NCBI GenBank assembly: GCA_005223075.1 | Contig: NJBO01000003.1 | Span: forward strand, 9,902-73,901 | Source: a candidate division TA06 bacterium B3_TA06 | GTDB lineage: Bacteria > Hydrothermota > Tepidihabitantia > B3-TA06 | Length of the DNA stretch: 64,000 nt | Reading direction: 5' to 3' | Part shown: piece by piece, positions 3,807 through 59,564 of the stretch | How positions within the stretch are numbered: the first letter of the stretch is position 1 | How the letters are laid out: the number at the start of each line of letters is the position of its first letter | The notes under the pieces: model-generated | Database searches by the model: none | Seen by the model: the letters and a program-made list of their open reading frames with translations, nothing else | What the model was told of the DNA's origin: nothing | Made by a program: the position numbers and the translations under genes

Positions 3807-4243
3807 AGCCCAATCCTCCTTACTTCGCGCTCCATGGCGCGGCGCTTAAGCGTCTCGCGCTTGTCAATTCTCTGCTTGCCCCGGCAGACGCCTATCAAAA
3901 GCTTGGCAATCCCGCGGTCGCTGAAGTAGAGCCTGAGGGGAATTAGCGTGTAGCCTCTGCGCTGGGTCTTGCCGTAGAGCTTCTTTAACTCATGGCTATG
4001 CAGAAGAAGCTTGCGCTTGCGCAGTGGTTCGGGGACGTCGAACGTTGCCTTTCTGTACGCTGCGATGTGCATTCCCACGATGTATGCTTCGCCTTCCTGG
4101 ATTATGCAGTATGCCTCCTTAATCGATGCCTGATGGTCACGCAGGGACTTGACCTCCGAGCCTACGAGCACAACCCCTGCTTCTAAGGTATCCTCTATGA
4201 AGTAGTCGTGCCGTGCCCGGCGGTTCTCAGCTATGACGTTCAT
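3803..4243 (-). CDS. smpB: SsrA-binding protein
   Basis: 146 aa, MNVIAENRRARHDYFIEDTLEAGVVLVGSEVKSLR typical SmpB N-terminus. Confidence 0.9.
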   Translation of the reverse strand: MNVIAENRRARHDYFIEDTLEAGVVLVGSEVKSLRDHQASIKEAYCIIQEGEAYIVGMHIAAYRKATFDVPEPLRKRKLLLHSHELKKLYGKTQRRGYTLIPLRLYFSDRGIAKLLIGVCRGKQRIDKRETLKRRAMEREVRRIGL

Positions 4244-4248
4244 GTAAA

Positions 4249-4277
4249 AGTGTAGTCTAGAAATGGGCTTCTGTCAA
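4249..4277 (-). promoter_or_regulatory. Putative sigma70-type promoter abutting smpB start (leaderless-type)
   Basis: Minus strand reads TTGACA-N17-TACACT, then 5 nt to the smpB ATG (4241-4243). Confidence 0.4.
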
Positions 4278-4392
4278 CCCTTGCGGACTTTTGCGCTCCT
4301 CGATTTGGAAAATAAAGGGGTAAAATCGTGCCACGATTAAAGATAAACATGCTACAAACTCGTCAGGTTTACATTGCACTCGTCACGATTAT

Positions 4393-4428
4393 GGGGTCCC
4401 CGCAAGAGCGCGAAGCGATCTTGTGGGG
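4393..4428 (+). repeat. R1 hairpin repeat (GGGGTCCCCGC...GTGGGG family)
   Basis: ggggtccccgcaagagcgcgaagcgatcttgtgggg; one of 8 copies with conserved termini and variable internal stem. Confidence 0.7.
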
Positions 4429-4526
4429 TAAAAAAAAAGCTGGTCAAAAGGTAGTCAAAAGCTGGACAAAAGATGGTCAGAAGTTGGACAAAATTAGAGT
4501 GATTTGGGAAGTTCTCTGGGTTTTTT

Positions 4527-4646
4527 GTCATTGCGAGGTTGCTCGGAGCAACCGAAGCAATCTATTACCTTCGGATTGGGTTGCGAGAAGGAAATGCTCC
4601 TTTGATTGAGATTGCTTCGACTTCTGGGGGAAGTCTCGCAATGACA
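4527..4646. repeat. R7 MITE-like element with 11-bp terminal inverted repeats GTCATTGCGAG/CTCGCAATGAC
   Basis: TIRs at 4527-4537 and 4634-4644; second copy at 46172-46280 shares the TIRs and internal ttgagattgcttc. Confidence 0.6.
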
Positions 4647-4689
4647 CCCCCTCTTTAATTCTCCCCCATCAAGGGGGAGGTAATTATAT

Positions 4690-4730
4690 GCTCCTTTTTA
4701 CCTAGCGGTAAAAAGATCGCAGTATAGAAC
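4690..4730 (+). repeat. R8 hairpin repeat (GCTCCTTTT-variable hairpin-AAAAGATCGCAG)
   Basis: gctcctttttacctagcggtaaaaagatcgcag; family has 5 copies with compensatory stem changes. Confidence 0.6.
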
Positions 4731-4737
4731 TGTCCTA

Positions 4738-4773
4738 GGGGTCCCCGCGGCGTTACGTAGTAACGGCGTGGGG
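4738..4773 (+). repeat. R1 hairpin repeat
   Basis: ggggtccccgcggcgttacgtagtaacggcgtgggg. Confidence 0.7.
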
Positions 4774-4780
4774 TAATAGT

Positions 4781-4864
4781 TCCCCCTCCCTTTGTGGACA
4801 GTGTGCCCCTTGGGGTGCTAACTTTACTGCACCCCATAGGGTAGGGGGATAAAGGGGGAGGGGA
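4781..4864 (-). repeat. R2 ~85-bp MITE-like element
   Basis: Reverse complement matches the copies at 10334-10428 and 59613-59697 (cccctccccctt.atccccctaccctatggggtgcagtaaa.ttggcaccccaaggggcac.ctgtccacaaagggagggggaac). Confidence 0.7.
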
Positions 4865-4977
4865 ATTTTAGACTGACGTACTATCATCTGTCTCCTCCCC
4901 CTTGATGGGGAAGGTGTTTTTCACCCCACGCGTTTACTTCGCAGCCGCGCGGGGAGCCCGAGGATAAAATCCATAGC

Positions 4978-5011
4978 TTCTGCGATCTTTTGCCCGCAGG
5001 GCAAAAGGAGC
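4978..5011 (-). repeat. R8 hairpin repeat (reverse orientation)
   Basis: cttctgcgatcttttgcccgcagggcaaaaggagc. Confidence 0.55.
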
Positions 5012-5071
5012 AATAGAACTACTTGACAACCCCTCAAGTTTGGCCTATATTATAACATAAACCAGCCCTTT

Positions 5072-5107
5072 GGGGTCCCCTCGCGAAAGCGAAGCTTTCG
5101 TGCGGGG
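5072..5107 (+). repeat. R1 hairpin repeat
   Basis: ggggtcccctcgcgaaagcgaagctttcgtgcgggg. Confidence 0.7.
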
Positions 5108-5125
5108 TAATGAAAGGAGGAAATC

Positions 5126-6529
5126 ATGAAGAGGTTTTCCCTAATCCTTATCCTGGCGAGTGTGGCGCTTGCAGTGATACCCACACAACTGGTCGCTGGC
5201 TGGTGGAGGACGTATGGAGGGGCAGAAAATGACGTAGGAAGATGCGTCAGGCAGACCCCTGATGGTGGCTACATAGTCCTTGGGCACACCTACTCTTTTC
5301 AAGGAGGCCCTATGTGGCTACTAAAGCTGGACCCCAACGGTGATACAGTTTGGACTAGACTCTATAACGGTAGCGCCGAGAATATCTACCTGACCAGCGA
5401 CGGGGGATATCTCATAGCGGGCGGGAAAAACGACAATCTCTGGTTGTTAAAGCTAAAAGAAAATGGGGACACTTCGTGGACTCGCACGTACGGAAAAGAT
5501 AGTTTGTTGGATTATGGTATTGCTGCATTCGAGACTGAAGATGGCGGATATATGCTTTTCGGAAGGACAGAATCCTTTGCAACGAATGAATGGGACGAAG
5601 ATGTTTGGATGTTGAGGACGGATGCCAAGGGAGATACTTTATGGACTAAGATCTACGGGGGAGAAGAAGATGACATACTTCGTTGTGTTCACCCCACTCA
5701 CCAAAAAGGAAAAGGCTACATAATGCTCGTTACGGCATATTCTTATATGGGTGATCAATTGGTTAAAGTCGACACGGCAGGCGAAGTACAATCTGAAGGT
5801 GAAGTATGGGTAGGTCTGCACACAGTATATATGAATGATGTTGTAAACGGCTATCTCGTCACATGTTGGGTTCATCCTAGTGGTGGGGAGTATAATATTT
5901 CCGATATCTATTTAGCCAAAACGGAATTTGGAAGCCTGGAACTTTATGAATGGGATGTATCTTGGGGGTCGGAATACTACGACTTAGGATATTACGTTGC
6001 ACTCACTAACGATTTTAGTTGTGTTGTCACCGGAGTATGGGGAGAAAATGGTCCTTCAGAAGGGGATCTTTTCCTGGCCAAAAGAGATCTTTGGGATGGC
6101 TGGGGGGTCTGGCAACGTATATATGGGGGTGACTCCTCCGAGTGGGGCAATTTCGTAGAACAAACAAGTGACGAAGGCTACATTGTGGTAGGGGGAACAG
6201 AATCATTCGGAGCAGGGGGAAGTGATATCTATATACTCAAAACTGACTCGTTAGGTTATGTCGGAGTAGAAGAGGAATCGGTTGCGGATAGGTGTGTTAC
6301 GGACTGGGATGCTACTCCCATCGGCCGCGAGATTATGCTGATGTATAAGGATAGGCCGGAAGGTTTCCACGCCGCTGTTTTCGACGAGTCGGGTCAAAAG
6401 GTTGACGAGTTGCACTCAACCCTGCACTCTGGCAGCGTGATGTGGGGTGAGGGGCACTCACCGGGTGTCTACTTCATTATGCCCACAGACGGGGAGTTGT
6501 CTAAACAGAAGGTGATCCTGATTCGATAG
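5126..6529 (+). CDS. Secreted repeat protein with T9SS-type C-terminal sorting domain
   Basis: 467 aa; SD gaaaggagg; N-terminal signal peptide; ~48-aa internal repeats (DGGY...G.T.SF...W.LKLD.NGDT.WT); C-terminus GVYFIMPTDGELSKQKVILIR resembles the CTD of the 50151-51796 gene. Confidence 0.6.
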   Translation: MKRFSLILILASVALAVIPTQLVAGWWRTYGGAENDVGRCVRQTPDGGYIVLGHTYSFQGGPMWLLKLDPNGDTVWTRLYNGSAENIYLTSDGGYLIAGGKNDNLWLLKLKENGDTSWTRTYGKDSLLDYGIAAFETEDGGYMLFGRTESFATNEWDEDVWMLRTDAKGDTLWTKIYGGEEDDILRCVHPTHQKGKGYIMLVTAYSYMGDQLVKVDTAGEVQSEGEVWVGLHTVYMNDVVNGYLVTCWVHPSGGEYNISDIYLAKTEFGSLELYEWDVSWGSEYYDLGYYVALTNDFSCVVTGVWGENGPSEGDLFLAKRDLWDGWGVWQRIYGGDSSEWGNFVEQTSDEGYIVVGGTESFGAGGSDIYILKTDSLGYVGVEEESVADRCVTDWDATPIGREIMLMYKDRPEGFHAAVFDESGQKVDELHSTLHSGSVMWGEGHSPGVYFIMPTDGELSKQKVILIR

Positions 6530-10333: not shown

Positions 10334-10428
10334 TACTTCTTTTCCCCTCCCCCTTTATCCCCCTACCCTATGGGGCGCAGTAAAATTGGCGCCCCAAGGG
10401 GCACGCTGTCCACACAGGGAGGGGGAAC
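10334..10428 (+). repeat. R2 ~85-bp MITE-like element
   Basis: cccctccccctttatccccctaccctatggggcgcagtaaaattggcgccccaaggggcacgctgtccacacagggagggggaac; nested inverted repeats. Confidence 0.7.
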
Positions 10429-10554
10429 TATTATCTCGAATAAGCAAACATTCCTAAATTCCCATTGCGAACTTTTCTGTGAAGGAGAAAAGGAGCATAA
10501 ATCCGCAGATTGGAACTCCTTTCAGTCGTTCTCCTTCGGAACGCAGATCCGTAG

Positions 10555-12169: not shown

Positions 12170-14125
12170 ATGCACGCGAGAATAGAGGCGGAGTTCACAG
12201 GACGCGGCCCGATCCTCACCAACCTCCCCAGATATGAAAAGCGCGGTGGACAGCTGGAAATGGCATTAGCGGTGGCGGACGCGCTTACCTCAGAAACCAA
12301 CCTGATGGTTGAGGCGGGCACCGGCATCGGCAAAAGCTTTGCCTATCTTGTGCCCTTGATCTACTGGACCCTCAAGGAAGGGCGCAAGGCGGTCGTCGCC
12401 ACCGGAACCAAGGTTCTGCAGAACCAGCTTGTCGCAAAAGACCTGCCCTTCCTTGCAGATCACAGCGATATACCGTTTAAGTTCGAGGTCCTCTATGGTC
12501 AGGAGAATTTTTTCTGCCGCCGCAGGGCCGGGATGGTCGCTCAGTACGGTCTTTTTGACGATCCGGACCAGGCCTCAGAGCTTGAGCGGATTGCAACCTG
12601 GGCCAGTCAAGAAAGCGGTGTCTTCGAAGACTACCAAGAACCCATCTCCCACGGACTCAAGGGACAGATAAGCCGTCGCTCCGAGGCCTGCCTTCGCCGC
12701 AACTGCACCTACTACGTCGAGTGCCCTTACTACCGCAAGCGCCGGGCAGCCGAGCAGGCCGACATCATCGTGATCAACCACCACCTGTTCTTTGCCCATC
12801 TTGAGTCGGCGGGCAAGCTTCTGCCAGAGTTCGGTGCCACTGTATTCGACGAGGCGCAACGCCTTGAGCAGATAGCCGCCTCCTACTTCGGGGTACGCTT
12901 GACCTCGATCGGGCTTTCATTGCTTTGCTCCCGTATCTACAATCCCCGCCGCGGCTCGGGGATAGCCCCCAAGCTACCCGGCTTCCCCGCACTCAAACCC
13001 AAACTGCGGGCGCTCATCGAGGAGACCCGCTTGGCGGCTGACAACTTCTTTATGAACATAGCAGGTCTGCTCAAACCCTACGAGTACAAGAAGCGCATCC
13101 GGGTTCCGGAGTGCGTACCCAACGATCTTGAGCAGCCACTTGACGATCTTTCCGGGTTCTGCTTCGAGAAGGCCAAGGACACCGACGATGAGAATCTGTC
13201 TTTTGAACTGATTTCCTTGGGTGATCGGATATCGGTGGCTAAGGGCGCGGTGGTCAGTTTTCTGGACATGGCGGATGCGAACTCGGTATACTGGATAGAG
13301 GCAAGCGACCGTAACGACCGTGTTTCGATCCACTCGGCTTTGATTGACGTTTCTGAGATGATGCGCAACTCGGTGTGGAACCAGCCCTGGACCAACATCC
13401 TGACCTCGGCTACCCTGACCGTGGGCAAGCGGTTCGAGTTTACCTGCCAGAGGATAGGATTCAACGACAGGACATTGCTTCTTGGCTCGCCATTTGATTA
13501 CGAGCAGAACGCCCTGACCTACGTAGGGCACGATCTGGTATCGCCCAAGCATGAAGCGTGGGCCGAGCGCATGCCGCAAAGGGTCGGCGAACTGCTCAAA
13601 GTAAGCGAAGGTAGAGCATTAGTCCTATTCACCAGCTACGCAACGCTAAACAAAACCGTAGAGGCTCTGGAAGAAGAGGTCTCCAAGAAGCACACCGTGC
13701 TGGTGCAAGGGCGGACTACCCGGAATGTGCTTCTCGATGAGTTCCGCTTCGACACCTCATCGGTCTTATTCGCCACCACCTCGTTCTGGGAGGGTGTGGA
13801 TATCCCCGGCGAGTCGCTGGTACTTCTCGTGATCACGCGCCTTCCCTTCGAGGTTCCTGACGATCCGCGGGCTGAGGCGATCCTTGAAGGCTATCGCAGA
13901 CAGGGAAAGGAGCCTTTTACCACCTACCAGCTGCCTTTGTCTGTCTTGAGGTTCAGGCAGGGCATCGGAAGATTGATCCGCCGCGACGACGACTACGGGG
14001 TGATAGCGGTGCTGGACTCGAGGATTGTGAAGAAAGCGTATGGAAGATTATTCTTAGATTCGATGCCACCTGCGCCGGTCGTTTTCAACCTCTTAGAAGT
14101 CCAGAGATTCTTCGAAGATCATTAA
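12170..14125 (+). CDS. DinG/XPD-family ATP-dependent helicase with Fe-S cluster domain
   Basis: 651 aa; Walker A AGTGIGKS, four Cys in FFCRRR...CLRRNCTYYVECPYY, DEAQ-type box FDEAQ. Confidence 0.8.
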   Translation: MHARIEAEFTGRGPILTNLPRYEKRGGQLEMALAVADALTSETNLMVEAGTGIGKSFAYLVPLIYWTLKEGRKAVVATGTKVLQNQLVAKDLPFLADHSDIPFKFEVLYGQENFFCRRRAGMVAQYGLFDDPDQASELERIATWASQESGVFEDYQEPISHGLKGQISRRSEACLRRNCTYYVECPYYRKRRAAEQADIIVINHHLFFAHLESAGKLLPEFGATVFDEAQRLEQIAASYFGVRLTSIGLSLLCSRIYNPRRGSGIAPKLPGFPALKPKLRALIEETRLAADNFFMNIAGLLKPYEYKKRIRVPECVPNDLEQPLDDLSGFCFEKAKDTDDENLSFELISLGDRISVAKGAVVSFLDMADANSVYWIEASDRNDRVSIHSALIDVSEMMRNSVWNQPWTNILTSATLTVGKRFEFTCQRIGFNDRTLLLGSPFDYEQNALTYVGHDLVSPKHEAWAERMPQRVGELLKVSEGRALVLFTSYATLNKTVEALEEEVSKKHTVLVQGRTTRNVLLDEFRFDTSSVLFATTSFWEGVDIPGESLVLLVITRLPFEVPDDPRAEAILEGYRRQGKEPFTTYQLPLSVLRFRQGIGRLIRRDDDYGVIAVLDSRIVKKAYGRLFLDSMPPAPVVFNLLEVQRFFEDH

Positions 14126-14129
14126 AATC

Positions 14130-14165
14130 GGGGTCCCCGCGCGATAGTAAAGCGACCGCGTGGGG
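14130..14165 (+). repeat. R1 hairpin repeat
   Basis: ggggtccccgcgcgatagtaaagcgaccgcgtgggg, 5 nt after helicase stop. Confidence 0.7.
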
Positions 14166-14360
14166 CGTTAAATGTAGTGCGAACCTTCAGGTTCGCCAAG
14201 AAAGCAAGCGAGACTAAAGTCTCGCACTACATGCTAATCTGGAACAGGCAGGAGTGTCTGTTCTCTTAAATGTAATTGTATGGGCTGCTATTTGAAGTGC
14301 AGCAGTTTTCCAAAAGTCCGTTATCCTGTACCATATGCGGGCCGGTCTAAAGACCGGCCC
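14166..14360. repeat. REP-like hairpin cluster (TAAAG-loop family)
   Basis: atgtagtgcga...tcgcactacatg inverted repeat, gcgagactaaagtctcgc (14208-14225), gggccggtctaaagaccggccc (14339-14360); same family as hairpins around the IS200-like gene at 54790. Confidence 0.55.
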
Positions 14361-26085: not shown

Positions 26086-26295
26086 CGGAGCAATCTAGCA
26101 GAAAGTAAGGGCGCCTTTAGGGCATCTAAGACTCCAAAAACGACGAGTGGGAAGGGGCTACCCCAACCAAATTCTTGATATCATTTTTTTGATTTATAAC
26201 AAAAGCTCTTGACAATCATAAAATTTTGTGCATCATTAGGGATAGAAGGAAGATTTATGTCCTTCTTTCAGAAACCTTCAACCCAAGGAGGAGAT

Positions 26296-26745
26296 ATGCA
26301 TAACTCCAAAAAACTCATACTCGCCGTCCTGGCAGTTATCCTGCTGCTGGGAGCCACTCCGGCGTTCGCTCAGCTGGGCGGAACCTGGGAGGGCATAGGT
26401 AGGGGCGAAGCTTACCCGCCCTGTCACCCTCCTATACACCCCTGGCAGACGTGGAAGGGCGAGATCCCGGCCACCCAAGATGTCTTCACCGGCGAATGGT
26501 GGGATGCGGACGGCAATCACGGCACATTCAAGGGCGTGGTGGAGTTCTCACCCATTCCTGAGATAGCATACGCTGAAGGCGAATGGACATGGTACGACCC
26601 CACAGGCCACTCTCAGCAACCAATAGTCGGCGGCAAGTTCAAGATGACGTTCTACATCCTGGAAAAAAGATGCGAAGGCACCTGGACATCCATCTGGCCC
26701 TCACCCAGCGATCACGGCACCATGAAAGGCTGGAAGGTAGATTAA
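26296..26745 (+). CDS. Array paralog 1: small Sec-secreted Trp/Cys-rich protein, subtype A
   Basis: 150 aa; start placed at ATG 26296 (SD aaggagg); signal MHNSKKLILAVLAVILLLGATPAFA; PPCHPPIHPWQTWKGEIP ... GTMKGWKVD. Confidence 0.7.
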   Translation: MHNSKKLILAVLAVILLLGATPAFAQLGGTWEGIGRGEAYPPCHPPIHPWQTWKGEIPATQDVFTGEWWDADGNHGTFKGVVEFSPIPEIAYAEGEWTWYDPTGHSQQPIVGGKFKMTFYILEKRCEGTWTSIWPSPSDHGTMKGWKVD

Positions 26746-26809
26746 CCTTCCATGAAACTCGGAGGGGCAGATTTCTGCCCCTCCTCACAGATCACAAAAG
26801 GAGTAAGAG

Positions 26810-27253
26810 ATGAGTAACTTCAAAAAACTCACGATCGCCGCGCTCGCGGTGATCTTTCTGATCGGAGCAACGCCTATTGCCGCCGAGCTCGACGGCATCT
26901 GGGAAGGCCATGGCGATGGAACCTGGCGGCCACCAAGCGGCATAGTACCTGTTCACCCCTGGCAAACCTGGAAAGGCACCGTCGAGAACGGACGCTTTTA
27001 CGGGGAGTGGTACGATAGCACAGGCGCCCACGGCAGATTCCAAGGCGTCATACCATCCTTAACCCAAGAGGTAGCATACTGCGAAGGCTTCTGGACGTGG
27101 GTAGATGAAGGTTGCGACCCACCACGGGAGATCACCGTAGGTCCGTTCGAGATGGATTTTCACTACGTCATTGAAACATGCAGGGGCGCATGGTGGAGTG
27201 AACTTACCGCCGTCCCGCAAGGACACATGTGGGGCCGAAGGACAGGCCCGTAG
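26810..27253 (+). CDS. Array paralog 2, subtype B-like
   Basis: 147 aa; signal MSNFKKLTIAALAVIFLIGATPIAA; HPWQTWKGTVENG ... CEGFWTWVD. Confidence 0.7.
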   Translation: MSNFKKLTIAALAVIFLIGATPIAAELDGIWEGHGDGTWRPPSGIVPVHPWQTWKGTVENGRFYGEWYDSTGAHGRFQGVIPSLTQEVAYCEGFWTWVDEGCDPPREITVGPFEMDFHYVIETCRGAWWSELTAVPQGHMWGRRTGP

Positions 27254-27326
27254 GGCATAATAGAAACCAAGCAGGGGGCGGGGTTACTCGCCCCCTCATA
27301 AACCTAAAACCTCAAAGGAGGAACAA

Positions 27327-27773
27327 ATGAGCAACTCCAAAAAACTCATAATCGCCCTCGCCGTGATCTTCTTGGTTGGGGCAACACCTGCCTTGGCCGA
27401 TCTCGATGGTATTTGGGAAGGCTATGGTAATGGCAGCTACTACTTACCTGACGGTAGCATCATCTACCCATGGCAAAGCTGGAACGGTACTGTCGAGAAT
27501 GGAGTCTTCAGCGGCTCCTGGGAAGATGACGAAGGCAACTCCGGCGGTTTCACAGGAGGCATCACATGCTTCTTCACTACTGTCCCACCCTCATATACGT
27601 TTGCCGGCTGCGAAGGAACCTGGACGTGGATTGACCCCAGCGGCTTAGAACCCATTGAACTAGGGAGCTTCTGGATGACGTTCAACGTAGACCTTGACAC
27701 CTGCTGGGGCGAATGGTTGCCTTACACTAATGCTCAGGGTGGAACCATGTGGGGCTGGAGGATAGGAGACTGA
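27327..27773 (+). CDS. Array paralog 3, subtype B
   Basis: 148 aa; YPWQSWNGTVENG ... CEGTWTWID ... GGTMWGWRIGD. Confidence 0.7.
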   Translation: MSNSKKLIIALAVIFLVGATPALADLDGIWEGYGNGSYYLPDGSIIYPWQSWNGTVENGVFSGSWEDDEGNSGGFTGGITCFFTTVPPSYTFAGCEGTWTWIDPSGLEPIELGSFWMTFNVDLDTCWGEWLPYTNAQGGTMWGWRIGD

Positions 27774-27846
27774 GGCATAATAGAAACCAACCAGGGGGCG
27801 GGGTTACTCGCCCCCTCATAAACCTTAAACCAAAAGGAGGAACAAA

Positions 27847-28302
27847 ATGAGTAACTCCAAAAAACTCCTCATCGCCCTGGCTGTGATACTTGCAGTCGGG
27901 GCAACGCCCCTCCTCGCACAACTTGAAGGACCGTGGGCAGGCAATGGCGAAGGAAGCTGCAAGACACCCACCGGAATCACTATCTACCCTTGGCAGGAGT
28001 GGGACGGCTTCGTGGAGAATGGAGCCTTCGACGGCAGTTGGTGGGACGGCGACAACGGCGGCAACTTTCACGGCGACATAATATCCATCAGCACCCCAGT
28101 CCCACCCGCGGAACCACATGACGTAGCATACTGTGAAGGCACCTGGACATGGGTAAATGACGAGGGGGAGGAGATATCTATGGGCCAGTTCTGGATGAAC
28201 TTTGACCTCCTCTACGGAACATGCGAAGGTGAATGGTGGCCTTGCAATCGCCCTGAGCCTTGGGGCCCGGGAATCATGTGGGGCTGGAGGATAGGAGACT
28301 GA
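27847..28302 (+). CDS. Array paralog 4, subtype B
   Basis: 151 aa; YPWQEWDGFVENG ... CEGTWTWVND ... IMWGWRIGD. Confidence 0.7.
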   Translation: MSNSKKLLIALAVILAVGATPLLAQLEGPWAGNGEGSCKTPTGITIYPWQEWDGFVENGAFDGSWWDGDNGGNFHGDIISISTPVPPAEPHDVAYCEGTWTWVNDEGEEISMGQFWMNFDLLYGTCEGEWWPCNRPEPWGPGIMWGWRIGD

Positions 28303-28375
28303 GGCATAATAGAAACCAAGCAGGGGGCGGGGTTACTCGCCCCCTCATAAACCTTAAACCTCAAAGGAGGAACAA

Positions 28376-28813
28376 ATGAGCACCCCAAAAAAAATCCTGC
28401 TAACCGCTTTGGCGGTGATCCTTTTACTAGGGGCCACGCCTATTGCCGCCCAGATCGCAGGAGTCTGGGAGGGCACCGGTAAAGGCGCAGCTTACCCGCC
28501 CTGCCACCTACCTATATATCCATGGCAGAAATGGATAGGCGAGATACCAAACTCTGAAGACGTCTTTTTCGGCGAGTGGAAAGACACCCTTGACAACCAC
28601 GGCAGATTCGAAGGCAAGCCTGCACCTTACTCCACTCCTGATGCGAAGGTGTTCAAAGGCTACTGGACCTGGGAAACCCCCGAAGGGATATTCAAAGGCG
28701 GCGAATTCACGATGACCTTTTACTTCTTGGAAGGCGAATGCAAGGGCACCTGGACATCCATCTGGCCTTCGCCGGGCAAGCTGGGAACCATGAGAGGCTG
28801 GAAGGTGCACTGA
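28376..28813 (+). CDS. Array paralog 5, subtype A
   Basis: 145 aa; PPCHLPIYPWQKWIGEIP ... GTMRGWKVH. Confidence 0.7.
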   Translation: MSTPKKILLTALAVILLLGATPIAAQIAGVWEGTGKGAAYPPCHLPIYPWQKWIGEIPNSEDVFFGEWKDTLDNHGRFEGKPAPYSTPDAKVFKGYWTWETPEGIFKGGEFTMTFYFLEGECKGTWTSIWPSPGKLGTMRGWKVH

Positions 28814-28880
28814 AGCATACAACCAACCAGGGGGCGGCCCTCCGCCCCCTATAAACCTTAAACCTCAAAGGAGGAACAAA

Positions 28881-29318
28881 ATGAGTAACCCCAAAAAACT
28901 CCTCATCGCCGCGCTTGCGGTGATCTTCCTGCTCGGCGCAACGCCCCTTGCCGCCGAGCTAGACGGGTTCTGGGCAGGAACTGGCACTGGCTGCTGCCAT
29001 CCAGAGTCCACCACCATCACCATATACCCCTGGCAGACATGGGACGGCTTCGTCGTGAACCACGAGATCTTTCACGGTGAGTGGCAAGATAGCTTAGGAC
29101 ACCAAGGCACCTTCGAAGGAAGAGTCGTCCAGATAGACTCAACCTATGCGGTTTTCGAAGGCACGTGGAGATGGACTGACCCCACCATACTCATAATCCC
29201 TCCTGTTATAGGCGAGTTCCATATGGACTTCGATCTTCTCACCCGCACCTGCCTGGGCGAATGGTTCTACCATGAGGACTACGGAACCATGCAAGGACAA
29301 AAACTGGAGACAAAATAA
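28881..29318 (+). CDS. Array paralog 6, divergent B-like
   Basis: 145 aa; GCCHPESTTITIYPWQTWDGFVVN ... GTMQGQKLETK. Confidence 0.7.
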   Translation: MSNPKKLLIAALAVIFLLGATPLAAELDGFWAGTGTGCCHPESTTITIYPWQTWDGFVVNHEIFHGEWQDSLGHQGTFEGRVVQIDSTYAVFEGTWRWTDPTILIIPPVIGEFHMDFDLLTRTCLGEWFYHEDYGTMQGQKLETK

Positions 29319-29393
29319 GAAAGAACAGACAAACCAACCAGGGGGCGGGGTTACTCGCCCCCTCATAAACCTTAAACCTCAAAGGAGGAACAA

Positions 29394-29834
29394 ATGAGCA
29401 CCCCAAAAAAAATCCTGCTAACCGGTTTGGCGGTAATCCTTTTACTAGGGGCCACGCCGCTTGCCGCCCAGATCGCAGGAAGATGGGAGGGTACTGGTAC
29501 AGGCGAAGCTTACCCGCCCTGCCACCCGCCTATACACCCCTGGCAGATCTGGATGGGCGAGATCCCGCTCACTCAGGATGTTTTCACAGGCGAATGGTGT
29601 GACGCGGACTGCAATCACGGCACCTTCAAGGGCGAGATAGCCCCTTTCTCAACTCCAGAGGAAGCATACTGTGAAGGTTATTGGACGTGGGATGATCCTT
29701 CCAGCCCGTCCATCATTGTAGGCCATTTCAAGATGACGTTCTACATCCTGGAAGGAATATGCGAAGGCACCTGGACATCCATCTGGCCATCGCCCAGCGG
29801 TCCCGGAACCATGAAAGGCTGGAAGATAGACTGA
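29394..29834 (+). CDS. Array paralog 7, subtype A
   Basis: 146 aa; PPCHPPIHPWQIWMGEIP ... GTMKGWKID; 5' end nearly identical at nucleotide level to paralogs 5 and 12. Confidence 0.7.
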   Translation: MSTPKKILLTGLAVILLLGATPLAAQIAGRWEGTGTGEAYPPCHPPIHPWQIWMGEIPLTQDVFTGEWCDADCNHGTFKGEIAPFSTPEEAYCEGYWTWDDPSSPSIIVGHFKMTFYILEGICEGTWTSIWPSPSGPGTMKGWKID

Positions 29835-29907
29835 GGTATACCTCGACAGACCATCAGGGGGCGGCCCTCCGCCCCCTTACAAACCTTAAACCAAAAGGAG
29901 GAACAAA

Positions 29908-30342
29908 ATGAGTAACTCCAAAAAACTCCTCATCGCCGCGCTTGCGGTGATCTTCCTCGCAGGGGCTACGCCTCTCGCCGCCCAGCTCGCAGGAGTCTGG
30001 GCAGGCACGGGCGAAGGCTGCTGCAGCCCTCCCGGAACTACCATCTACCCTTGGCAGACGTGGAAGGGTGAAATACCCAACAGCCAAGACGTGTTTTCCG
30101 GCAAGTGGTGGGACGCAGATAGCAACCGGGGCACCTTCCACGGAAAGATAATAATCTCCAGTGTCACCGAAGCATACTGCGAAGGTATCTGGAACTTAGA
30201 TGACCCTTCAGGGGCTTCAATCATTGGAGGTGATTTCAAGATGACATTCTACATCCTGGAAGGAACATGCGAAGGCACCTGGATATCCATCTGGCCCACC
30301 GCCTTACCCGCAACCATGAGAGGCTGGAAGGTAGAACCGTAA
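29908..30342 (+). CDS. Array paralog 8, A/B mosaic
   Basis: 144 aa; B-type signal peptide with A-type body (YPWQTWKGEIPNSQDVFSGKWWD ... TMRGWKVEP). Confidence 0.7.
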   Translation: MSNSKKLLIAALAVIFLAGATPLAAQLAGVWAGTGEGCCSPPGTTIYPWQTWKGEIPNSQDVFSGKWWDADSNRGTFHGKIIISSVTEAYCEGIWNLDDPSGASIIGGDFKMTFYILEGTCEGTWISIWPTALPATMRGWKVEP

Positions 30343-30406
30343 AGTCACAACCTAGGGGGCGGGCTTGTGCCCCCTCATAAACCTCAAACCTCAAAGGAGG
30401 AACAAA

Positions 30407-30856
30407 ATGCACAACTATAAAAAACTCATACTCGCCGCCCTGGCAGTTATCCTGCTGCTGGGAGCCACTCCGGCGTTCGCTCAGCTGGCCGGAACCTGGG
30501 AGGGCACTGGTAGGGGCGAAGCTTACCCGCCCTGCCACCCTCCTATACACCCCTGGCAAAACTGGATAGGCGAGATCCCGAACTCTCAGGATGTGTTTTT
30601 CGGCGAATGGTGGGACTCGGACTGCAATCACGGCACCTTCAAGGGCGAAATAGCCCCTTTCTCCACTCCAGAGGAAGTATACTGTGAAGGCGAATGGACA
30701 TGGTACGACCCCACAGGCTCCTCTCACCAACCAATAGTCGGCGGCAAGTTCAAGATGACGTTCTACATCCTGGAAGGAAGATGCGAAGGCACCTGGACCT
30801 CCATATGGCCATCGCCCAGCGAGCACGGAACCATGAGAGGCAGGAAGGTACACTGA
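30407..30856 (+). CDS. Array paralog 9, subtype A
   Basis: 149 aa; start placed at ATG 30407 after SD aaaggagg; ends GTMRGRKVH. Confidence 0.7.
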   Translation: MHNYKKLILAALAVILLLGATPAFAQLAGTWEGTGRGEAYPPCHPPIHPWQNWIGEIPNSQDVFFGEWWDSDCNHGTFKGEIAPFSTPEEVYCEGEWTWYDPTGSSHQPIVGGKFKMTFYILEGRCEGTWTSIWPSPSEHGTMRGRKVH

Positions 30857-30925
30857 ACCTTAACGCCGAGCGGGGACGGGTTTCCATCCCCGCTCGGGAT
30901 AAACCTTAAACCAAAAGGAGAAGCA

Positions 30926-31354
30926 ATGAGTAACTCCAAAAAGCTAATGCTCACCGCCTTGGCGGTGATCTTTCTGATCGGAGCGACGCCTCTCTTCGCC
31001 GATCTCGACGGCATCTGGGAAGGCTACGGCGAAGGAAGCTGCGAGACACCCGCTGGAACCATCATCTACCCCTGGCAAACCTGGAACGGAACCGTTGATG
31101 AATACGGGTACTTCTCCGGCGAGTGGGAAGACTCGGACGGCAATCAAGGCACCTTCGAAGGCTGCATGGCGTCCCTGAACCCCCCAGTCTGCCCGGGGGT
31201 ATGGACATGGAGAGACGATTCGAGTCTCGAACCCATCGAGATGGGCCTATTCCAGATGGTCTTTTACGAGGTCCAAGGAACATGCAACGGCGAATGGTGG
31301 CCGTACTCTGGCGCTCAGGGTGGAACCATGTGGGGCTGGAGTATAGGAGACTAA
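30926..31354 (+). CDS. Array paralog 10, subtype B
   Basis: 142 aa; YPWQTWNGTVDEYG ... GGTMWGWSIGD. Confidence 0.7.
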   Translation: MSNSKKLMLTALAVIFLIGATPLFADLDGIWEGYGEGSCETPAGTIIYPWQTWNGTVDEYGYFSGEWEDSDGNQGTFEGCMASLNPPVCPGVWTWRDDSSLEPIEMGLFQMVFYEVQGTCNGEWWPYSGAQGGTMWGWSIGD

Positions 31355-31425
31355 GGCATAATAGAAACCAACCAGGGGGCGGCCATCCGCCCCCACTTAA
31401 ACCCTAAACCTCAAAGGAGGAACAA

Positions 31426-31875
31426 ATGAGTAACCCCAAAAAAATCCTCATCGCCGCGCTTGCGGTGATCTTCCTCGCAGGGGCGACGCCGCTTCTTGCC
31501 CAACTCAACGGTACATGGGCGGGCGAAGGAGAAGGCGTTTGCTCTCCGCCTCCCCCTATACCTACCGACTTCCCCATCTATGCTTGGCAGAACTGGAAAG
31601 GTCTGGTTGAGGATAATGAAGTCTTCTACGGCGAGTGGTACGATAACCGCTGTAACAACGGCACCTTCAAAGGCGAGATCGTATTCGTAACTCCCGAGGA
31701 TGCATACTGCGAAGGCGAGTGGCACTGGTTCGACGAACGCTACGACCCTCCGCGTGTCTACTACATGGGACCGTTTTCGATGAAGTTCAAGCTGGAAGAA
31801 GCAATATGCTACGGTGAATGGCGGACTTACTACAGTAATGAGAGCGGAACCATGAAAGGAGAAAAGATAGACTGA
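31426..31875 (+). CDS. Array paralog 11, divergent
   Basis: 149 aa; FPIYAWQNWKGLVEDNEVFYGEWYD ... GTMKGEKID. Confidence 0.7.
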   Translation: MSNPKKILIAALAVIFLAGATPLLAQLNGTWAGEGEGVCSPPPPIPTDFPIYAWQNWKGLVEDNEVFYGEWYDNRCNNGTFKGEIVFVTPEDAYCEGEWHWFDERYDPPRVYYMGPFSMKFKLEEAICYGEWRTYYSNESGTMKGEKID

Positions 31876-31953
31876 GGATATACCGGGAAACCGGCTAACC
31901 CAGGGGGCGGGCTTCCGCCCCCTGATAAACCCTAAACCTCAAAGGAGGAACAA

Positions 31954-32400
31954 ATGAGCACCCCAAAAAAAATCCTGCTAACAGGTTTGGCGGTGATCCT
32001 TTTACTAGGGGCCACGCCGCTTGCCGCCCAGATCGCAGGCACATGGGAAGGCACCGGAACCAGCTGCTGCTGTCCACACCCGGGCACGATCATCTACCCC
32101 TGGCAGGCGTGGGTAGGTGAGATCCCCAACTCCCAGGACGTCTTCACCGGCGAGTGGAAAGACAGCCTCGACAACCGCGGCACATTCAAGGGCGAAATCC
32201 TCTGGATCAGCACCACCGTCGCCATCGCCAGAGGTTCCTGGTACTGGTTCGATCCTACCGGTCCCAGTCACGAACCGGTCTACGGAGGCGACTTCGAGAT
32301 GAAGTTCTACGTCTACGAGAGGGAGTGCACCGGCACCTGGACATCCATCTGGCTATCGCCCAGCGAACACGGAACCATGAGAGGCAGAAAGGTACACTAA
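31954..32400 (+). CDS. Array paralog 12, subtype A
   Basis: 148 aa; CCCPHPGTIIYPWQAWVGEIP ... GTMRGRKVH. Confidence 0.7.
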   Translation: MSTPKKILLTGLAVILLLGATPLAAQIAGTWEGTGTSCCCPHPGTIIYPWQAWVGEIPNSQDVFTGEWKDSLDNRGTFKGEILWISTTVAIARGSWYWFDPTGPSHEPVYGGDFEMKFYVYERECTGTWTSIWLSPSEHGTMRGRKVH

Positions 32401-32466
32401 ACCTAAAGCCGAGGGGGGCGCAAACCCGTCCCCCTCGGGATGAACCTTAAACCAAAAGGAGAAGCA

Positions 32467-32922
32467 ATGAGTAACTCCAAAAAGCTAATGCTCACCGCCT
32501 TGGCGGTGATCTTTCTGATCGGAGCAACGCCGCTCTTCGCAGAACTCGACGGCATCTGGGAAGGCTACGGCGAAGGAAGCTGCGAGACACCCGCTGGAAT
32601 CATCATCTACCCCTGGCAAACCTGGAACGGCAGCCTGGAGTCATGGCTCTTCACCGGCCACTGGCAAGACTTGGACGGCAGCTCCGGCGGCTTCCAGGGG
32701 GCCGTCATATCCCTCGCCAAATCCGTTGAACCGCCTTACCATACGGTTGCTCACTGCGAAGGAACCTGGACGTGGATGGATCCCAGCGGCTTAGAACCCC
32801 TCGAAATGGGTCCCTTCAATATGGAGTTCAATCTGGACATTGACACCTGCTGGGGCAACTGGTACTCCTATTCTAGCCCCGGAATTGGCGGAACCATGTG
32901 GGGCTGGAGGATAGGAGACTGA
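32467..32922 (+). CDS. Array paralog 13, subtype B
   Basis: 151 aa; start placed at ATG 32467; first ~45 codons and upstream intergenic region nearly identical to paralog 10. Confidence 0.7.
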   Translation: MSNSKKLMLTALAVIFLIGATPLFAELDGIWEGYGEGSCETPAGIIIYPWQTWNGSLESWLFTGHWQDLDGSSGGFQGAVISLAKSVEPPYHTVAHCEGTWTWMDPSGLEPLEMGPFNMEFNLDIDTCWGNWYSYSSPGIGGTMWGWRIGD

Positions 32923-32974: not shown

Positions 32975-33012
32975 CCCCACACGGGCGCTTTACGTGCCCG
33001 TGCGGGGACCCC
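32975..33012 (-). repeat. R1 hairpin repeat (reverse orientation)
   Basis: ccccacacgggcgctttacgtgcccgtgcggggacccc. Confidence 0.65.
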
Positions 33013-34447: not shown

Positions 34448-34483
34448 CCCCACGTCTTCACTTCGTGAAGCCGCGGGGACCCC
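34448..34483 (-). repeat. R1 hairpin repeat (reverse orientation)
   Basis: ccccacgtcttcacttcgtgaagccgcggggacccc. Confidence 0.65.
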
Positions 34484-34490: not shown

Positions 34491-34527
34491 GCTCCTTTTT
34501 GCCTTCGGCAAAAAGATCGCAAAGGAG
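34491..34527 (+). repeat. R8 hairpin repeat
   Basis: gctcctttttgccttcggcaaaaagatcgcaaaggag. Confidence 0.6.
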
Positions 34528-34642
34528 AAAAACACATTATCTCTGGGAATAAATCACTACGTCCTTCCGACTCCTGCGAATCAATTTCTCCGAGCCTCTA
34601 CAAGAAGGCGAAGCATTCGTTGTTTCGGCAAAAACTTCCTCC

Positions 34643-34674
34643 CTGCGATCTTTTCTCAGTATGAGAAAAGGAGC
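34643..34674 (-). repeat. R8 hairpin repeat (reverse orientation)
   Basis: ctgcgatcttttctcagtatgagaaaaggagc. Confidence 0.55.
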
Positions 34675-44151: not shown

Positions 44152-44157
44152 TTATGA

Positions 44158-44245
44158 AGTGCAATGACACAGTCATTGCAGTCCAAAAGATTTTATGGAG
44201 TGCAACGAGCGTCTCGTTGCTTGCGACAACACGGTTGTCGCACTC
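44158..44245. repeat. REP-like palindromic cluster upstream of RAYT gene
   Basis: tgcaatgacacagtcattgca and ggagtgcaacgagcgtctcgttgcttgcgacaacacggttgtcgcactcc (outer stem enclosing two inner hairpins). Confidence 0.7.
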
Positions 44246-44262
44246 CAGAATAGCGTTGTATA

Positions 44263-44817
44263 ATGAGCGATGATTTAATCTACAAGCAGCACAAACACAA
44301 TCCACCTCATCTGTTCATCCCCAAAGCCAAATACTTCATCACCGCTTCTACATACCAGAAAAAGCCTTTTCTAAGTTCTCATGAGAGCAAATCGCGTCTC
44401 CTGGAATCCATAATTAAAGGATGCGATAAATCCAACTGGTTATTGGAAGATTGGGTTATACTCGACAATCATTATCACCTGATGCTGCAAGCCCCTGAGG
44501 AGGATCCTGATTTATCCAAAATGATCAGTGAAATCCATCGCTTTACCGCTCTCTGGATAAAGAAAAATGCCTTGGAAGCGAAATCGGCTAAAAGAATCTT
44601 CTGGAACTACTGGGATAGATGTATTACTCACGAACGGTCTTACTTTGCCAGACTAAACTACATTTACTTCAACCCGGTAAAGCATGGATATGTCCCAAAT
44701 CCTGAAGATTATCCGCATGGGAGTTATTATTACAGAATAAAGACTGAAGAAGAACGCCTCAAAAAACTACAACAAGATTATCCTTGGGGTCGTGTCAATG
44801 TCAATGACGATTTCTAG
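44263..44817 (+). CDS. REP-associated tyrosine transposase (RAYT, IS200-like Y1 HUH family)
   Basis: 184 aa; HUH motif NHYHLML and YIYFNPVKHGYV region; flanked on both sides by REP-like palindromes. Confidence 0.7.
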   Translation: MSDDLIYKQHKHNPPHLFIPKAKYFITASTYQKKPFLSSHESKSRLLESIIKGCDKSNWLLEDWVILDNHYHLMLQAPEEDPDLSKMISEIHRFTALWIKKNALEAKSAKRIFWNYWDRCITHERSYFARLNYIYFNPVKHGYVPNPEDYPHGSYYYRIKTEEERLKKLQQDYPWGRVNVNDDF

Positions 44818-44910
44818 CTTGACGCAACAACACGGTTGTCGTACTCCAAAAACCCACTCTGGAGTGCAACGAGCGCCTCGTTGCATGCAACAACACGGTT
44901 GTTGCACTCC
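44818..44910. repeat. REP-like palindromic cluster downstream of RAYT gene
   Basis: cttgacgcaacaacacggttgtcgtactcc and ggagtgcaacgagcgcctcgttgcatgcaacaacacggttgttgcactcc. Confidence 0.7.
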
Positions 44911-44924
44911 AAAATAATCTGTAA

Positions 44925-45991: not shown

Positions 45992-46026
45992 CCCCACGAC
46001 TTTGCTCACAAAGTCGCGGGGACCCC
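45992..46026 (-). repeat. R1 hairpin repeat (reverse orientation)
   Basis: ccccacgactttgctcacaaagtcgcggggacccc. Confidence 0.65.
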
Positions 46027-47675: not shown

Positions 47676-48523
47676 AATCAACCGGGATCTAATCCCCCTG
47701 CCACCAATAACAAAAAGAAGAAGGATACGAATCCAGGCCTTCCTTACAGCATGCGAGGCAACGGATGGGGATGAGTAAACTCCTTTTCACTTGACTTCGC
47801 ATATAAAGTATCTATAATAAGCGTAGGATGTTTTTGAGATATTAGGGATGAGACGGAAGATACCGCAAAAACAGAAGATGAGGAAAATAATATGGAGTGT
47901 AGGATCAGCGAGGGACAAGGAGAATTCTCTGTCCTGCTGCCTTTAAGACAATCAAATCAATGCTCCTACATCGTCTTTTGCACGGGAGAAGGAAAGAAAT
48001 CCACCCGCTCAAGGATCATCGCTGTAGGAACGATACTCGATTCCCACCTTGCAAAAGAGCTCTCAACCCGGGAGGACACACTTCCCCCTCACCGATGACA
48101 GATTCTGGACAACTTTACTGAGAGACTCAAAGACGAGTATACTTTTCAGAATCCGCTATGAAATTATCCATTAGGATAACTCTAAAAATGGATTGCCAAG
48201 AGCCCCTTTTGCAACTCTATAAATTACGCAACTTAACTGAAGGCAACCTGGCACGACGCTTGCTACCCTCCAGAACGAATGGAGGTTGTGATGAAGCTAA
48301 ACATAGAGAAGAAGGAAAAGGAGCGTTTGAAGAAGGAGTTGATCCGCAAGCTTGAGGCGAGAATCCGCCAGGCTCAAACTGCGGATGCAACCCGCGCCTA
48401 CTAGATTAAGATTCAATGCCTCCTCATAAAATGCGGCTCCCCTGTGGGGGGGCCGCTTCCTTTTACCCCAAACCGACGCTGCGCATTGCTTTGGGGACCC
48501 GATCTGGTTTGTAAGGTGTTTGC

Positions 48524-54789: not shown

Positions 54790-55248
54790 ATGAGGAAGAA
54801 GCGAATACGCCTCAAGTCTTTCGATTACCTGGGTGCTTACAGATACTTCGTGACCATCTGCACGCATAACCAGAAGCAGGCATTCACCAGCGAGGGGCGC
54901 GTAAGAACCGTCTCTGACATTCTGAAAGAAACCGCTGAGCAGGAAGGATTCACGGTCTGGGCCTGGTGTTTCATGCCGGATCATTTGCACATCCTTGTCG
55001 AAGGTGTTAATGAGAAATCCGATCTCCGCCGGTTCATGAAGATATTCAAACAGAAAAGCGGCTATCAGTGGAAGCAGATTGAAGGCGAAAAGTTATGGCA
55101 GGAAGATTACTTCGAGCGCATCCTGCGGCGGGAAGAAACCACCCCAAAGGTCATAGAATACATTCTCAACAACCCTGTGCGGCGTGGTTTGGTTTCTTCT
55201 CCGGAGGAGTACCCCTTCTCCTATTCTCTTTTAGACAACAACATGTAG
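54790..55248 (+). CDS. IS200-like Y1 HUH transposase (RAYT-type)
   Basis: 152 aa; HUH motif DHLHILV, YILNNPVRRGLV region; flanked by REP-like hairpins; stop codon lies within the conserved catgtag REP terminus. Confidence 0.7.
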   Translation: MRKKRIRLKSFDYLGAYRYFVTICTHNQKQAFTSEGRVRTVSDILKETAEQEGFTVWAWCFMPDHLHILVEGVNEKSDLRRFMKIFKQKSGYQWKQIEGEKLWQEDYFERILRREETTPKVIEYILNNPVRRGLVSSPEEYPFSYSLLDNNM

Positions 55249-55441: not shown

Positions 55442-55463
55442 CTTATTCCACAAGAGAAGCAAT

Positions 55464-59528: not shown

Positions 59529-59564
59529 CCCCACAACTCCGCTTCGCGTAGTCGCGGGGACCCC
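59529..59564 (-). repeat. R1 hairpin repeat (reverse orientation)
   Basis: ccccacaactccgcttcgcgtagtcgcggggacccc. Confidence 0.65.

Follow-up and report, generated by a model that had tools for sequence, protein, structure and literature searches.

Results

Tagged hairpins in the gaps between genes

The window, by which we refer to the whole 64-kb stretch of DNA analysed here, contains an 880-nt repeat-rich gap that extends from smpB to ORF 5126 and accommodates four of the ten copies of a short hairpin element, R1. Within region 4393-5107, three of these copies read forward (4393..4428, 4738..4773 and 5072..5107, + strand) and one reads in reverse (4924..4959, - strand). The 36-nt R1 form is composed of GGGG-T-CCCCGCG, a variable stem, a c(GNA)g loop, the complementary arm of the stem and CGTGGGG-T. 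A complete single-hairpin unit, as delimited by indels between strains, spans ~45 nt and comprises a short leader, the GGGG tag, one T, a 31-nt imperfect hairpin and a short A/T-rich tail.

The copies within the smpB gap are embedded in a mosaic of repeats. A second family, the B hairpin (TGCTCCTTTT...AAAAGATCGCAG), often precedes R1 in the window: the copy at 4738..4773 is preceded by a B hairpin (4688-4722) and a linker, and followed by the tail TAATAGTT and a C/G-run hairpin, while another B hairpin (4980-5012, - strand) lies 5' of the 4924..4959 copy on the minus strand. The copy at 5072..5107, with one additional T·C pair in its base, is flanked by a promoter-like TTGACA-17-TATATT (5023-5051) and by the ribosome-binding site and ATG of ORF 5126-6529, and because of this location it is probably part of the 5' leader of that ORF, as judged from the sequence. 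Four contigs (L003-L006) stop 180-220 nt from smpB, in or at the edge of the repeat cluster. The GC skew is monotonic across the 64-kb window.

Outside the gap, R1 copies either follow a stop codon at a distance of 3-56 nt or occupy the space between convergent genes. The copy at 14130..14165 (+) starts 4 nt past the stop codon of a helicase gene (12170-14125), in sense orientation. On the minus strand, the 38-nt copy at 32975..33012 separates two + strand genes, to which it is antisense, and directly follows a terminator-like hairpin that has a T run; the copy at 34448..34483, preceded on its 5' side by a B hairpin (34491-34518), lies in sense orientation between htrA and an AIM24 gene (both -) and differs by one substitution from its counterpart in strain L209; the copy at 45992..46026, hereafter site A, is antisense and 3 nt past the stop codon of the rubrerythrin gene; and the copy at 59529..59564 occupies the convergent gap between a TPR gene and dnaE. 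Finally, a degenerate copy (48466..48501, -) with a CGGG tag and a CCCCAAA/TTTGGGG base is located in sense orientation 22 nt past the stop codon of an OmpA-family gene, and its counterpart in strain L213 is better paired.

The abundance of the family clearly departs from chance. The 12-mer of the 5' arm, GGGGTCCCCGCG, has nine matches in the window with at most one mismatch, against 0.5 expected, and none of 100 shuffles reached nine; a looser search added the degenerate tenth copy. A covariance model trained on 11 copies and run over all 64 kb with filters off returned exactly the ten copies (E 6e-9 to 6e-6), three of which (5072, 32975 and 45992) were outside the training set, and its next match, at E=0.61, is merely the opposite strand of a copy. 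The first-pass annotation had listed eight copies, all of which are present at the coordinates and on the strands it gave; its family size has to be raised to ten by adding 4924-4959 (-) and the degenerate 48466-48501 (-). Its observation that copies mostly lie just 3' of genes or in repeat-rich gaps holds as well: all are intergenic, and many are located in the smpB gap or at 3-25 nt from a stop codon.

A fixed base, a free middle stem and a strand-specific wobble

The base of the hairpin is fixed, CCCCRCG paired with CGTGGGG, with a G·T wobble at pair 5, while the middle stem varies freely and differs in every copy of this genome. A variable centre had been described as 12-16 nt long; such a centre does exist, although it measures ~17 nt and only a middle stem of ~5 bp is truly free; its tip is capped by a semi-conserved c-GNA-g triloop, in most cases GCGAAGC or GCGCAGC. 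GGGG plus one T constitutes the tag in eight of the ten window copies, the exceptions being GGGC (4959) and CGGG (48501), and one strain variant of the tag reads GTGG (L001, in the copy matching 4924-4959). In 10 of 11 aligned copies the base after the 3' GGGG is T. Most copies are singletons; the two halves of the one inverted pair, 4738(+)/4959(-), are 150 nt apart.

An ungapped alignment of 11 copies over 37 columns, seven from the window and four from WOR-3 and Stahlbacteria MAGs, strongly supports the annotated hairpin family with conserved termini and a co-varying core. Of all cells in the 14-bp hairpin, 91.6% are paired, and 8 of the 14 pairs have changes on both sides. The observed covariation score was reached by none of 500 shuffles, and sliding the 3' partner by 1-3 columns as a control lowered pairing to 35-50% of cells.

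Pair 5 (columns 10-32) is a G·T wobble in 10 of 11 copies, and in relatives it is either G·T or A-T, never G-C; therefore, the T of the 3' arm is always kept. Folded as single strands with DNA parameters, R1 copies range from -8 to -15 kcal/mol, and under RNA parameters the complement folds less stably than the GGGG strand, by a mean of 3.6 kcal/mol, in agreement with the earlier proposal that the wobble pairs on that strand only. The inner stems of R1-type hairpins contain 21 G·T against 9 A·C. The c-GNA-g apex, found in most window copies, recurs in 52 of 118 distinct cross-phylum copies (44%), often as exactly GCGAAGC. The sequence GCGAAGC, of the cGNAg type, is a classical extra-stable DNA mini-hairpin, and GNA triloops are DNA-stable rather than RNA-stable motifs.

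Orientation relative to transcription

Relative to the nearest gene, R1 is oriented in the window in a ratio of ~4 sense to 3 antisense, and a tally from gene tables and ORF lists that includes related contigs with called genes gives ~8:6. Over 120 other loci, among the matches listed, the count is 35:30, which is only indicative because gene calling was crude in the high-GC loci, 57 'inside ORF' calls being probably spurious. As orientation is mixed, the strand asymmetry of R1 is not tied to the direction of transcription. The first-pass annotation would have given up the element if random orientation coincided with a lack of covariation; orientation is indeed mixed, but covariation is strong, and thus the element stands.

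No U-tract follows R1: the GGGG strand continues with T and an A-rich stretch, and the opposite strand with ACCCC. A role as an intrinsic transcription terminator was accordingly rejected, the GC-rich hairpin lacking a directly following U-tract, and a terminator scan of 4200-5200 reported no R1 copy. Rfam gave no match at the gathering score in the window and nothing relevant at E<=1 for six loci or at E<=5 for 4250-5130; a tRNA/tmRNA scan returned nothing relevant to R1.

Units gained and lost, and a core replaced in situ

R1 copies are dynamic, whole units being gained or lost between strains that are ~95% identical. The copy at 4393 is present in the window and in L004-L006 and cleanly absent from L001-L003, where CGTCAC is joined directly to AAAAAAGCTGG; the filled site reads CGTCAC-GATTAT-hairpin-T-AAA..., so that the inserted block equals GATTAT, the hairpin and T(AAA). 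Conversely, L001 carries near 6985 a block of ~75 nt, B hairpin plus R1, that is missing from the window, and L209 has two extra R1 copies opposite window positions ~34685 and ~53770. In L211, one R1 unit is inserted between two REPs of the type that surrounds the first Y1/RAYT gene described below. The acidobacterial contig L130 has a 42-nt R1-type unit embedded in a hairpin; an uninterrupted twin of this hairpin is found upstream, across the same gene. No consistent target duplication was found at the gain and loss junctions compared, in the strains and in L130.

The window and L209 share identical flanks and hairpin bases at site A and have unrelated cores, ACTTTGTGAGCAAAGT in the window and AAGCTACGCAGTAGATT in L209, and the core is also swapped in the ~95%-identical strain L213. 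In a species at 82% protein identity the window core type is found with one substitution, and in a relative at 85% identity the L209 type with two. In relatives at 77% identity a GGGGT-tagged hairpin is still there, with its base changed compensatorily to CTCC/GGAG. Site A has thus long been occupied, with tag, position and orientation kept while the stem drifts or is replaced. That the copy is retained across species whose flanks diverge (77-82% protein identity) would be expected of a host function under selection more than of selfish DNA. Since R1 is antisense to the only gene at site A, the mRNA has the A·C version of the hairpin. Core replacement at a fixed site is the one unusual and unexplained feature of R1.

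Y1 transposase genes and sister hairpins

Two genes for Y1/RAYT transposases (PF01797) are encoded in the window, at 44263..44817 (+) and 54790..55248 (+), both resembling E. coli RayT; they provide context and are no partners of R1, which flanks neither. The first is surrounded only by its own REP family, GGAG-T-GCAAC..., at 44157-44250, 44818-44915 and 45358-45412, with six copies around the gene and none elsewhere in the window, and its orthologue in L220 (70% identical) shows the same arrangement. The second is flanked, within ~54587-55445, by canonical GTAG-tagged REPs of the form GTAGYGCGGGACTTNAGTCCCGC. The product of the first gene is 100% identical to a protein from candidate division TA06 bacterium B3_TA06, which assigns the window to that lineage; the exact strain may be another one, two further window proteins having no exact counterpart. 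The R1, GGAG-T-hairpin and GTAG-Y-hairpin families have in common a layout of tag, 1-nt linker and hairpin.

A search for Y1 genes near R1 by tblastn and HMM, with E. coli RayT, both window proteins and seven TIRYT sequences from a paper supplement as queries, found the two genes of the window and, in L094, a single further gene embedded in an operon; R1 flanks none of the three. Among the 120 listed R1-bearing loci, a Y1 gene no more than 8 kb away occurs in one, without being R1-flanked, and no R1-flanked Y1 gene was found in the 23 viral loci. Clustering of the genes neighbouring R1 in the 120 listed loci yielded no mobile-element protein, only housekeeping and paralogue-rich families. A 547-aa ORF bracketed by two inverted R1 copies (L100) was considered as a candidate enzyme and discarded, as it is a TPR-like lipoprotein with no Pfam match and no homologue in the window. 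In three Clostridia loci R1 composites lie beside or inside relaxase genes; an oriT reading was set aside, the composites being placed inconsistently with respect to the gene (once immediately upstream, once within it and once 2.7 kb away).

Acidobacterial Y1 genes have been reported that are flanked by inverted repeats in place of GTAG REPs (PMC3733652). With four TIRYT proteins as query, we surveyed 80 acidobacterial metagenomic Y1 loci (L129-L208), and in most of those listed a hairpin adjoins the gene that consists of GGGTG-CCCC(R), a variable complementary stem and (Y)GGG(G), one per side and inverted where both flanks are present. Under strict scan criteria such hairpins were scored in 10 of the 80 loci, where ~50-100 nt separate them from the ends of the gene. 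The GGGTG-CCCC hairpins are a sister family and not R1 itself, built on the same design of a fixed base and a variable core.

Distribution across bacteria

An exact-pattern scan for the R1 base, with one genome per species, returned at least 120 loci. Among the matches listed, the exact 19-nt base occurs in at least 13 phylum-level lineages: Acidobacteriota, Dormibacterota, Chloroflexota, Actinomycetota, Bacillota/Clostridia, Alphaproteobacteria, Gemmatimonadota, Eremiobacterota, WOR-3, Stahlbacteria, Saccharimonadales, Eisenbacteria and Kiritimatiellae. Nearly all of these matches are true hairpins of the R1 design. In several lineages the R1 hairpin is one module of a larger mosaic repeat, such as three-hairpin composites in Oscillospiraceae (Clostridia) and a 75-nt element in Pyrinomonadaceae. 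Tandem arrays (36-53 nt) with the hairpin as a module are found in Dormibacterota, Acidobacteriaceae and Actinomycetota, the direct arrays having identical 8-9-nt linkers, and in L100 an inverted R1 pair surrounds a gene. Five of the 120 listed cross-phylum loci belong to the infB-rbfA-truB operon or its vicinity; where R1 sits in an rbfA-truB spacer, its wobble strand is antisense. Viral contigs contain only 23 matches in 2.9 million.

A literature search with the R1 12-mer and 10-mers on both strands retrieved unrelated matches only (miR-615, primers). With no Rfam family and no paper found that contains the motif, R1 looks like an element not previously described.

Discussion

Our findings are best accommodated, with a probability of roughly 0.5, by a model in which R1 is a REP-like, non-autonomous mobile hairpin moved as single-stranded DNA by a Y1 HUH enzyme. 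In this model, the hairpin would form on the GGGG strand when the DNA is single-stranded, for instance at a replication fork, where a Y1 HUH tyrosine transposase of the RAYT/TnpA(REP) kind would bind, cut and re-join it, and the unit would be inserted between genes, or removed, without target duplication. The fixed base and its wobble would serve as the recognition part, the middle stem as a spacer only, and the cGNAg cap would stabilise the DNA hairpin. The same process could exchange hairpin cores between copies; alternatively, template switching within the palindrome might restore the symmetry of the cores. After insertion, copies can persist for long and would probably act secondarily as hairpins at mRNA ends, in either orientation. 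The single-stranded DNA state, the Y1 enzyme as mover and the way in which cores change are what we infer here.

By analogy, a tag set off by a 1-nt linker from a hairpin in which a single irregular pair is fixed would favour Y1 recognition, as it is the design of REPs and of IS200 ends (PMC6006769). In addition, a single-stranded DNA hairpin read by a strand-specific enzyme also explains the strand asymmetry of R1. The model also draws on the two RAYT genes of the window with their similarly built families, on the sister hairpins beside acidobacterial Y1 genes, on the gain and loss of units between strains, and on the density of ten extragenic copies in 64 kb. On the other side, an identical 19-nt base in at least 13 phylum-level lineages could point to a different and more universal partner. 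Membership of R1 in the REP class proper is unproven, no R1-flanked Y1 gene having been found, and we refrain from assigning it plainly to REPs because the partner gene is missing, the tag is non-canonical and the cores are heterogeneous within one genome.

The identity of the base across phyla, together with the long retention of one copy, leaves room for another conserved partner or for a host function. R1 might thus be a site for a conserved non-Y1 protein, such as another HUH nuclease, a nucleoid or topoisomerase protein or a hairpin-specific enzyme, with mobility as a by-product. That the base remains identical while embedded in differing lineage-specific mosaics speaks for such a partner, as do the failure of the Y1 search to find an R1-flanked gene and the persistence at site A. 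We nevertheless regard it as rather unlikely: apart from housekeeping genes no protein family recurs beside R1 in the 120 listed loci, the closest structural relatives of the hairpin flank Y1 genes, and the tag-plus-hairpin layout fits the recognition logic of Y1 enzymes.

A bolder, and in our opinion improbable, version would make R1 a pan-bacterial 'cassette holder', whose base is read by a widely conserved single-strand DNA enzyme outside the described RAYT clades and whose inner stem-loop is actively replaced at fixed sites. If true, this would amount to a new kind of hairpin-exchange or hairpin-diversifying mobile system, and R1 would be no ordinary REP.

The strand asymmetry had been taken in the first-pass annotation as a hint of function at the RNA level in one orientation. 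R1 would then stabilise mRNA at the 3' or 5' end, or serve as a site of processing or of protein binding, with the G·U wobble marking the functional strand. Copies placed 3-25 nt past stop codons, the one in a 5' leader, the structural covariation with its fixed wobble, the conservation of the site A copy amid diverging flanks and the loci at the infB-rbfA-truB operon are consistent with such a role. We find it unlikely, however, and the hint is not borne out: orientation is mixed with respect to transcription, the wobble strand is antisense at site A and in the rbfA-truB spacers, no U-tract lies behind the hairpin, the GNA triloops are of a DNA-stable type, entire units come and go between strains, and Rfam has no match. 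A GGGG-strand-specific RNA role is less supported than a different conserved partner or a host function, and is the least supported of these.

Another conceivable origin would be decayed IS200/IS605-type ends (PATE or MITE-like), spread through horizontal transfer of a parent IS. The cross-phylum spread is more in keeping with an IS that moves horizontally than with RAYTs that are inherited vertically, R1 is laid out like a subterminal hairpin preceded on its 5' side by a guide-like tetranucleotide, and a few copies are on viral contigs. Yet no Y1 (tnpA) gene was found between or beside copies in the window, the 120 listed loci or the 23 viral loci, neighbour clustering in the 120 listed loci revealed no recurrent transposase-like family, and the units are single hairpins of ~45 nt, not left-end/right-end pairs, which makes this origin very unlikely. 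Solitary or degenerate CRISPR-like repeats, suggested by short tandem arrays in some lineages and by a base, UCCCCGCG...CG(U)GGGG, that we take to resemble type I-E repeat hairpins, are effectively refuted by the structure of the arrays, which have constant 8-9-nt linkers and no unique 30-nt spacers, with window copies being dispersed singletons and no cas genes among the ORFs scanned.

Few non-coding features of bacterial genomes are as abundant as REP-type repeats, the cataloguing of which has relied almost exclusively on GTAG/GTGG (or CGTC) tags and has centred on Proteobacteria. Systematic REP searches demanded a GTAG or GTGG tag (PMC6006769), and searches based on such tags would miss the R1 family, the base of which reaches candidate phyla (TA06, WOR-3, Stahlbacteria, Dormibacterota, Eisenbacteria and Saccharimonadales) as well as Acidobacteriota, Actinomycetota and Clostridia. 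If a Y1 enzyme does move R1, the range of tag-and-hairpin codes read by domesticated transposases would be wider. R1 also offers a natural system in which recognition base and free core can be distinguished by eye, and the replaced core at site A in strains that are 95% identical gives a concrete example of a hairpin that evolves fast while its complementarity is preserved, which enzyme-mediated exchange or template switching could cause. In practical terms, R1-type repeats break metagenome assemblies and vary enough between strains to be used as strain markers.

Comparison with known systems

Like the repeats of the REP/REPIN-RAYT systems of E. coli, Pseudomonas and Stenotrophomonas (PMC2817692, PMC3116915, PMC3479197, PMC6006769), R1 is a short, GC-rich, imperfect extragenic palindrome whose stem has a fixed irregularity and whose hairpin base is preceded, at a distance of 0-2 nt on the 5' side, by a conserved 4-nt tag. 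It also shares with them a high local density, both orientations, differences in presence between strains and a genome that encodes RAYTs with REP families of their own. In contrast, the R1 tag is GGGG where that of REPs is GT[AG]G (GTAG or GTGG), so that R1 follows the rule for tag position but not for tag sequence, and the flanking of a RAYT gene that defines a REPtron was found for R1 neither in the window nor in the 120 listed genome loci and 23 viral loci. R1 copies, apart from the inverted pairs in the window and in L100, mostly occur as singletons rather than as REPIN doublets, their middle stems all differ within one genome whereas classical REP families are homogeneous, and their base is conserved across phyla to a larger extent than REP families usually are.

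In IS200/IS605 elements, a single-strand hairpin that is strand-specific and has an unpaired or irregular base is accompanied by a guide tetranucleotide on its 5' side, and insertion does not duplicate the target (PMC6006769). R1 resembles the subterminal hairpins of IS608 and ISDra2 in its strand asymmetry, its irregular base, its 5' tetranucleotide and its insertion with no clear target duplication. Unlike these elements, R1 has a single hairpin per unit, with no transposase gene found between hairpins and no conserved target tetranucleotide identified. The apex of R1 is in turn like the d(GCGAAGC)/cGNAg mini-hairpin, which is a structural feature and not a genetic element, and in R1 caps a longer stem.

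The GTAG and CGTC super-families of palindromes (PMC3733652) combine a terminal tag with a palindrome and occur, as R1 does, as singletons, dimers and tandem groups, but the GGGG(T) tag of R1 is in neither of them. The TIRYT inverted repeats (Di Nocera et al. 2013, PMC3733652; loci L129-L208) differ from R1 in reading GGGTG-CCCC(R) in place of GGGGT-CCCCGCG and in that a pair of them flanks a Y1 gene, as R1 does not. They have in common with R1 a CCCC...GGGG hairpin to which a G-run tag is joined directly, a wobble close to the foot of the stem, and a conserved base with a lineage-variable, fully complementary core. In L130 the two types are found together, the R1-type unit being a separate insertion inside a TIRYT-type hairpin.

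R1 hairpins in other phyla

Among the 120 cross-phylum loci listed, which carry R1 hairpins and come from an exact-pattern scan of one genome per species, rbfA-truB is present in five (L012, L014, L097, L102 and L121), against a chance expectation that we estimate at about 0.2. In four of these five loci the hairpins are located within the operon spacers or immediately upstream of them, and in all four loci with this placement they are antisense to the genes.

Two different multi-hairpin repeats of about 120-160 nt in Oscillospiraceae and their relatives include the R1 hairpin as a module (L013, L016, L020, L025, L028, L029, L037, L099, L109, L118, L122; L014, L058, L087, L094, L123). One composite has R1 as its 5' module, and AGAGGAGGAGC and a long hairpin come after it; the other has R1 as its 3' module, preceded by CAAGCGTTTTGC...GCAAAACCTTG. 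At L029 the R1 composite is found in frame within a relaxase gene. At L094 (6400-6680), the final ~55 nt of era are repeated on the composite's far side, as if its insertion had brought along or rebuilt the end of the gene; the same operon holds a Y1 transposase-like gene between ybeY and era.

Repeats accompanying R1 in the window

In a second hairpin family, of the form TGCTCCTTTT[..]AAAAGATCGCAG, the ends are fixed, and the middle varies and is self-complementary. Its members occur at window positions 4688-4722, 4980-5012(-), 10462-10496(-), 34491-34518 and 34640-34674(-), as well as at L100 6215-6250. Often they are found on the 5' side of an R1 copy, at a distance of 8-25 nt, and, therefore, both families make up a mosaic unit.

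MITE-like elements of ~110-120 nt, bounded at both ends by inverted GTCATTGCGAG, are located at 4526-4646, 46172-46283 and also at 37497. In the related strain L001, the element of the smpB gap is swapped for a different sequence with unchanged ends. Three copies of a ~95-nt repeat of C-run/G-run hairpins (CCCCCTCCC...GGGAGGGG, GGGGTGCTAACTTTACTGCACCCC) lie at 4775-4864, 10340-10433 and 59605-59698, and L001 (3149-3299) has an additional 176-nt block of similar hairpins at window position 4864|4865. Directly after the polymorphic R1 copy at 4393, five 11-nt units (AAAAGNTGGWC) are arranged head-to-tail at 4435-4489, their number varying among strains. Four independent assemblies (contigs L003-L006) end 180-220 nt from smpB, near 4420-4490, within the repeat cluster or at its edge, and the smpB-gap repeats probably break up metagenome assemblies of the B3_TA06 lineage.

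Elsewhere in the window, a tandem array at 26209-32922 consists of ~13 paralogous ORFs, each 142-178 aa long and encoded on the + strand; none of the five ORFs tested had a Pfam match.

Hairpins beside transposase genes

Within a set of 80 metagenomic loci (L129-L208), hairpins beside acidobacterial Y1 genes have the 5' motif GGGTGCCCC in common; their stems are fully complementary, yet quite different from lineage to lineage, and extra half-sites such as GGGTGGCCC lie close by in many loci.

The first RAYT/Y1 transposase gene of the window (44263-44817) is surrounded by three REPIN-like doublets (44157-45412) of a private family, with the form GGAG-T-GCAACGAGCG.CTCGTTGC / GCAACAACACGGTTGTTGC. 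Its neighbour, an LMW phosphatase gene, is likewise bracketed by these doublets, whose count varies among the strains of contigs L209-L212. A lone GTAG-REP family member, at 14208-14230(-), and the R1 copy at 14130 are 45 nt apart, and the second RAYT gene (54790-55248) carries canonical GTAG-tagged REPs on its flanks (region 54580-55445).
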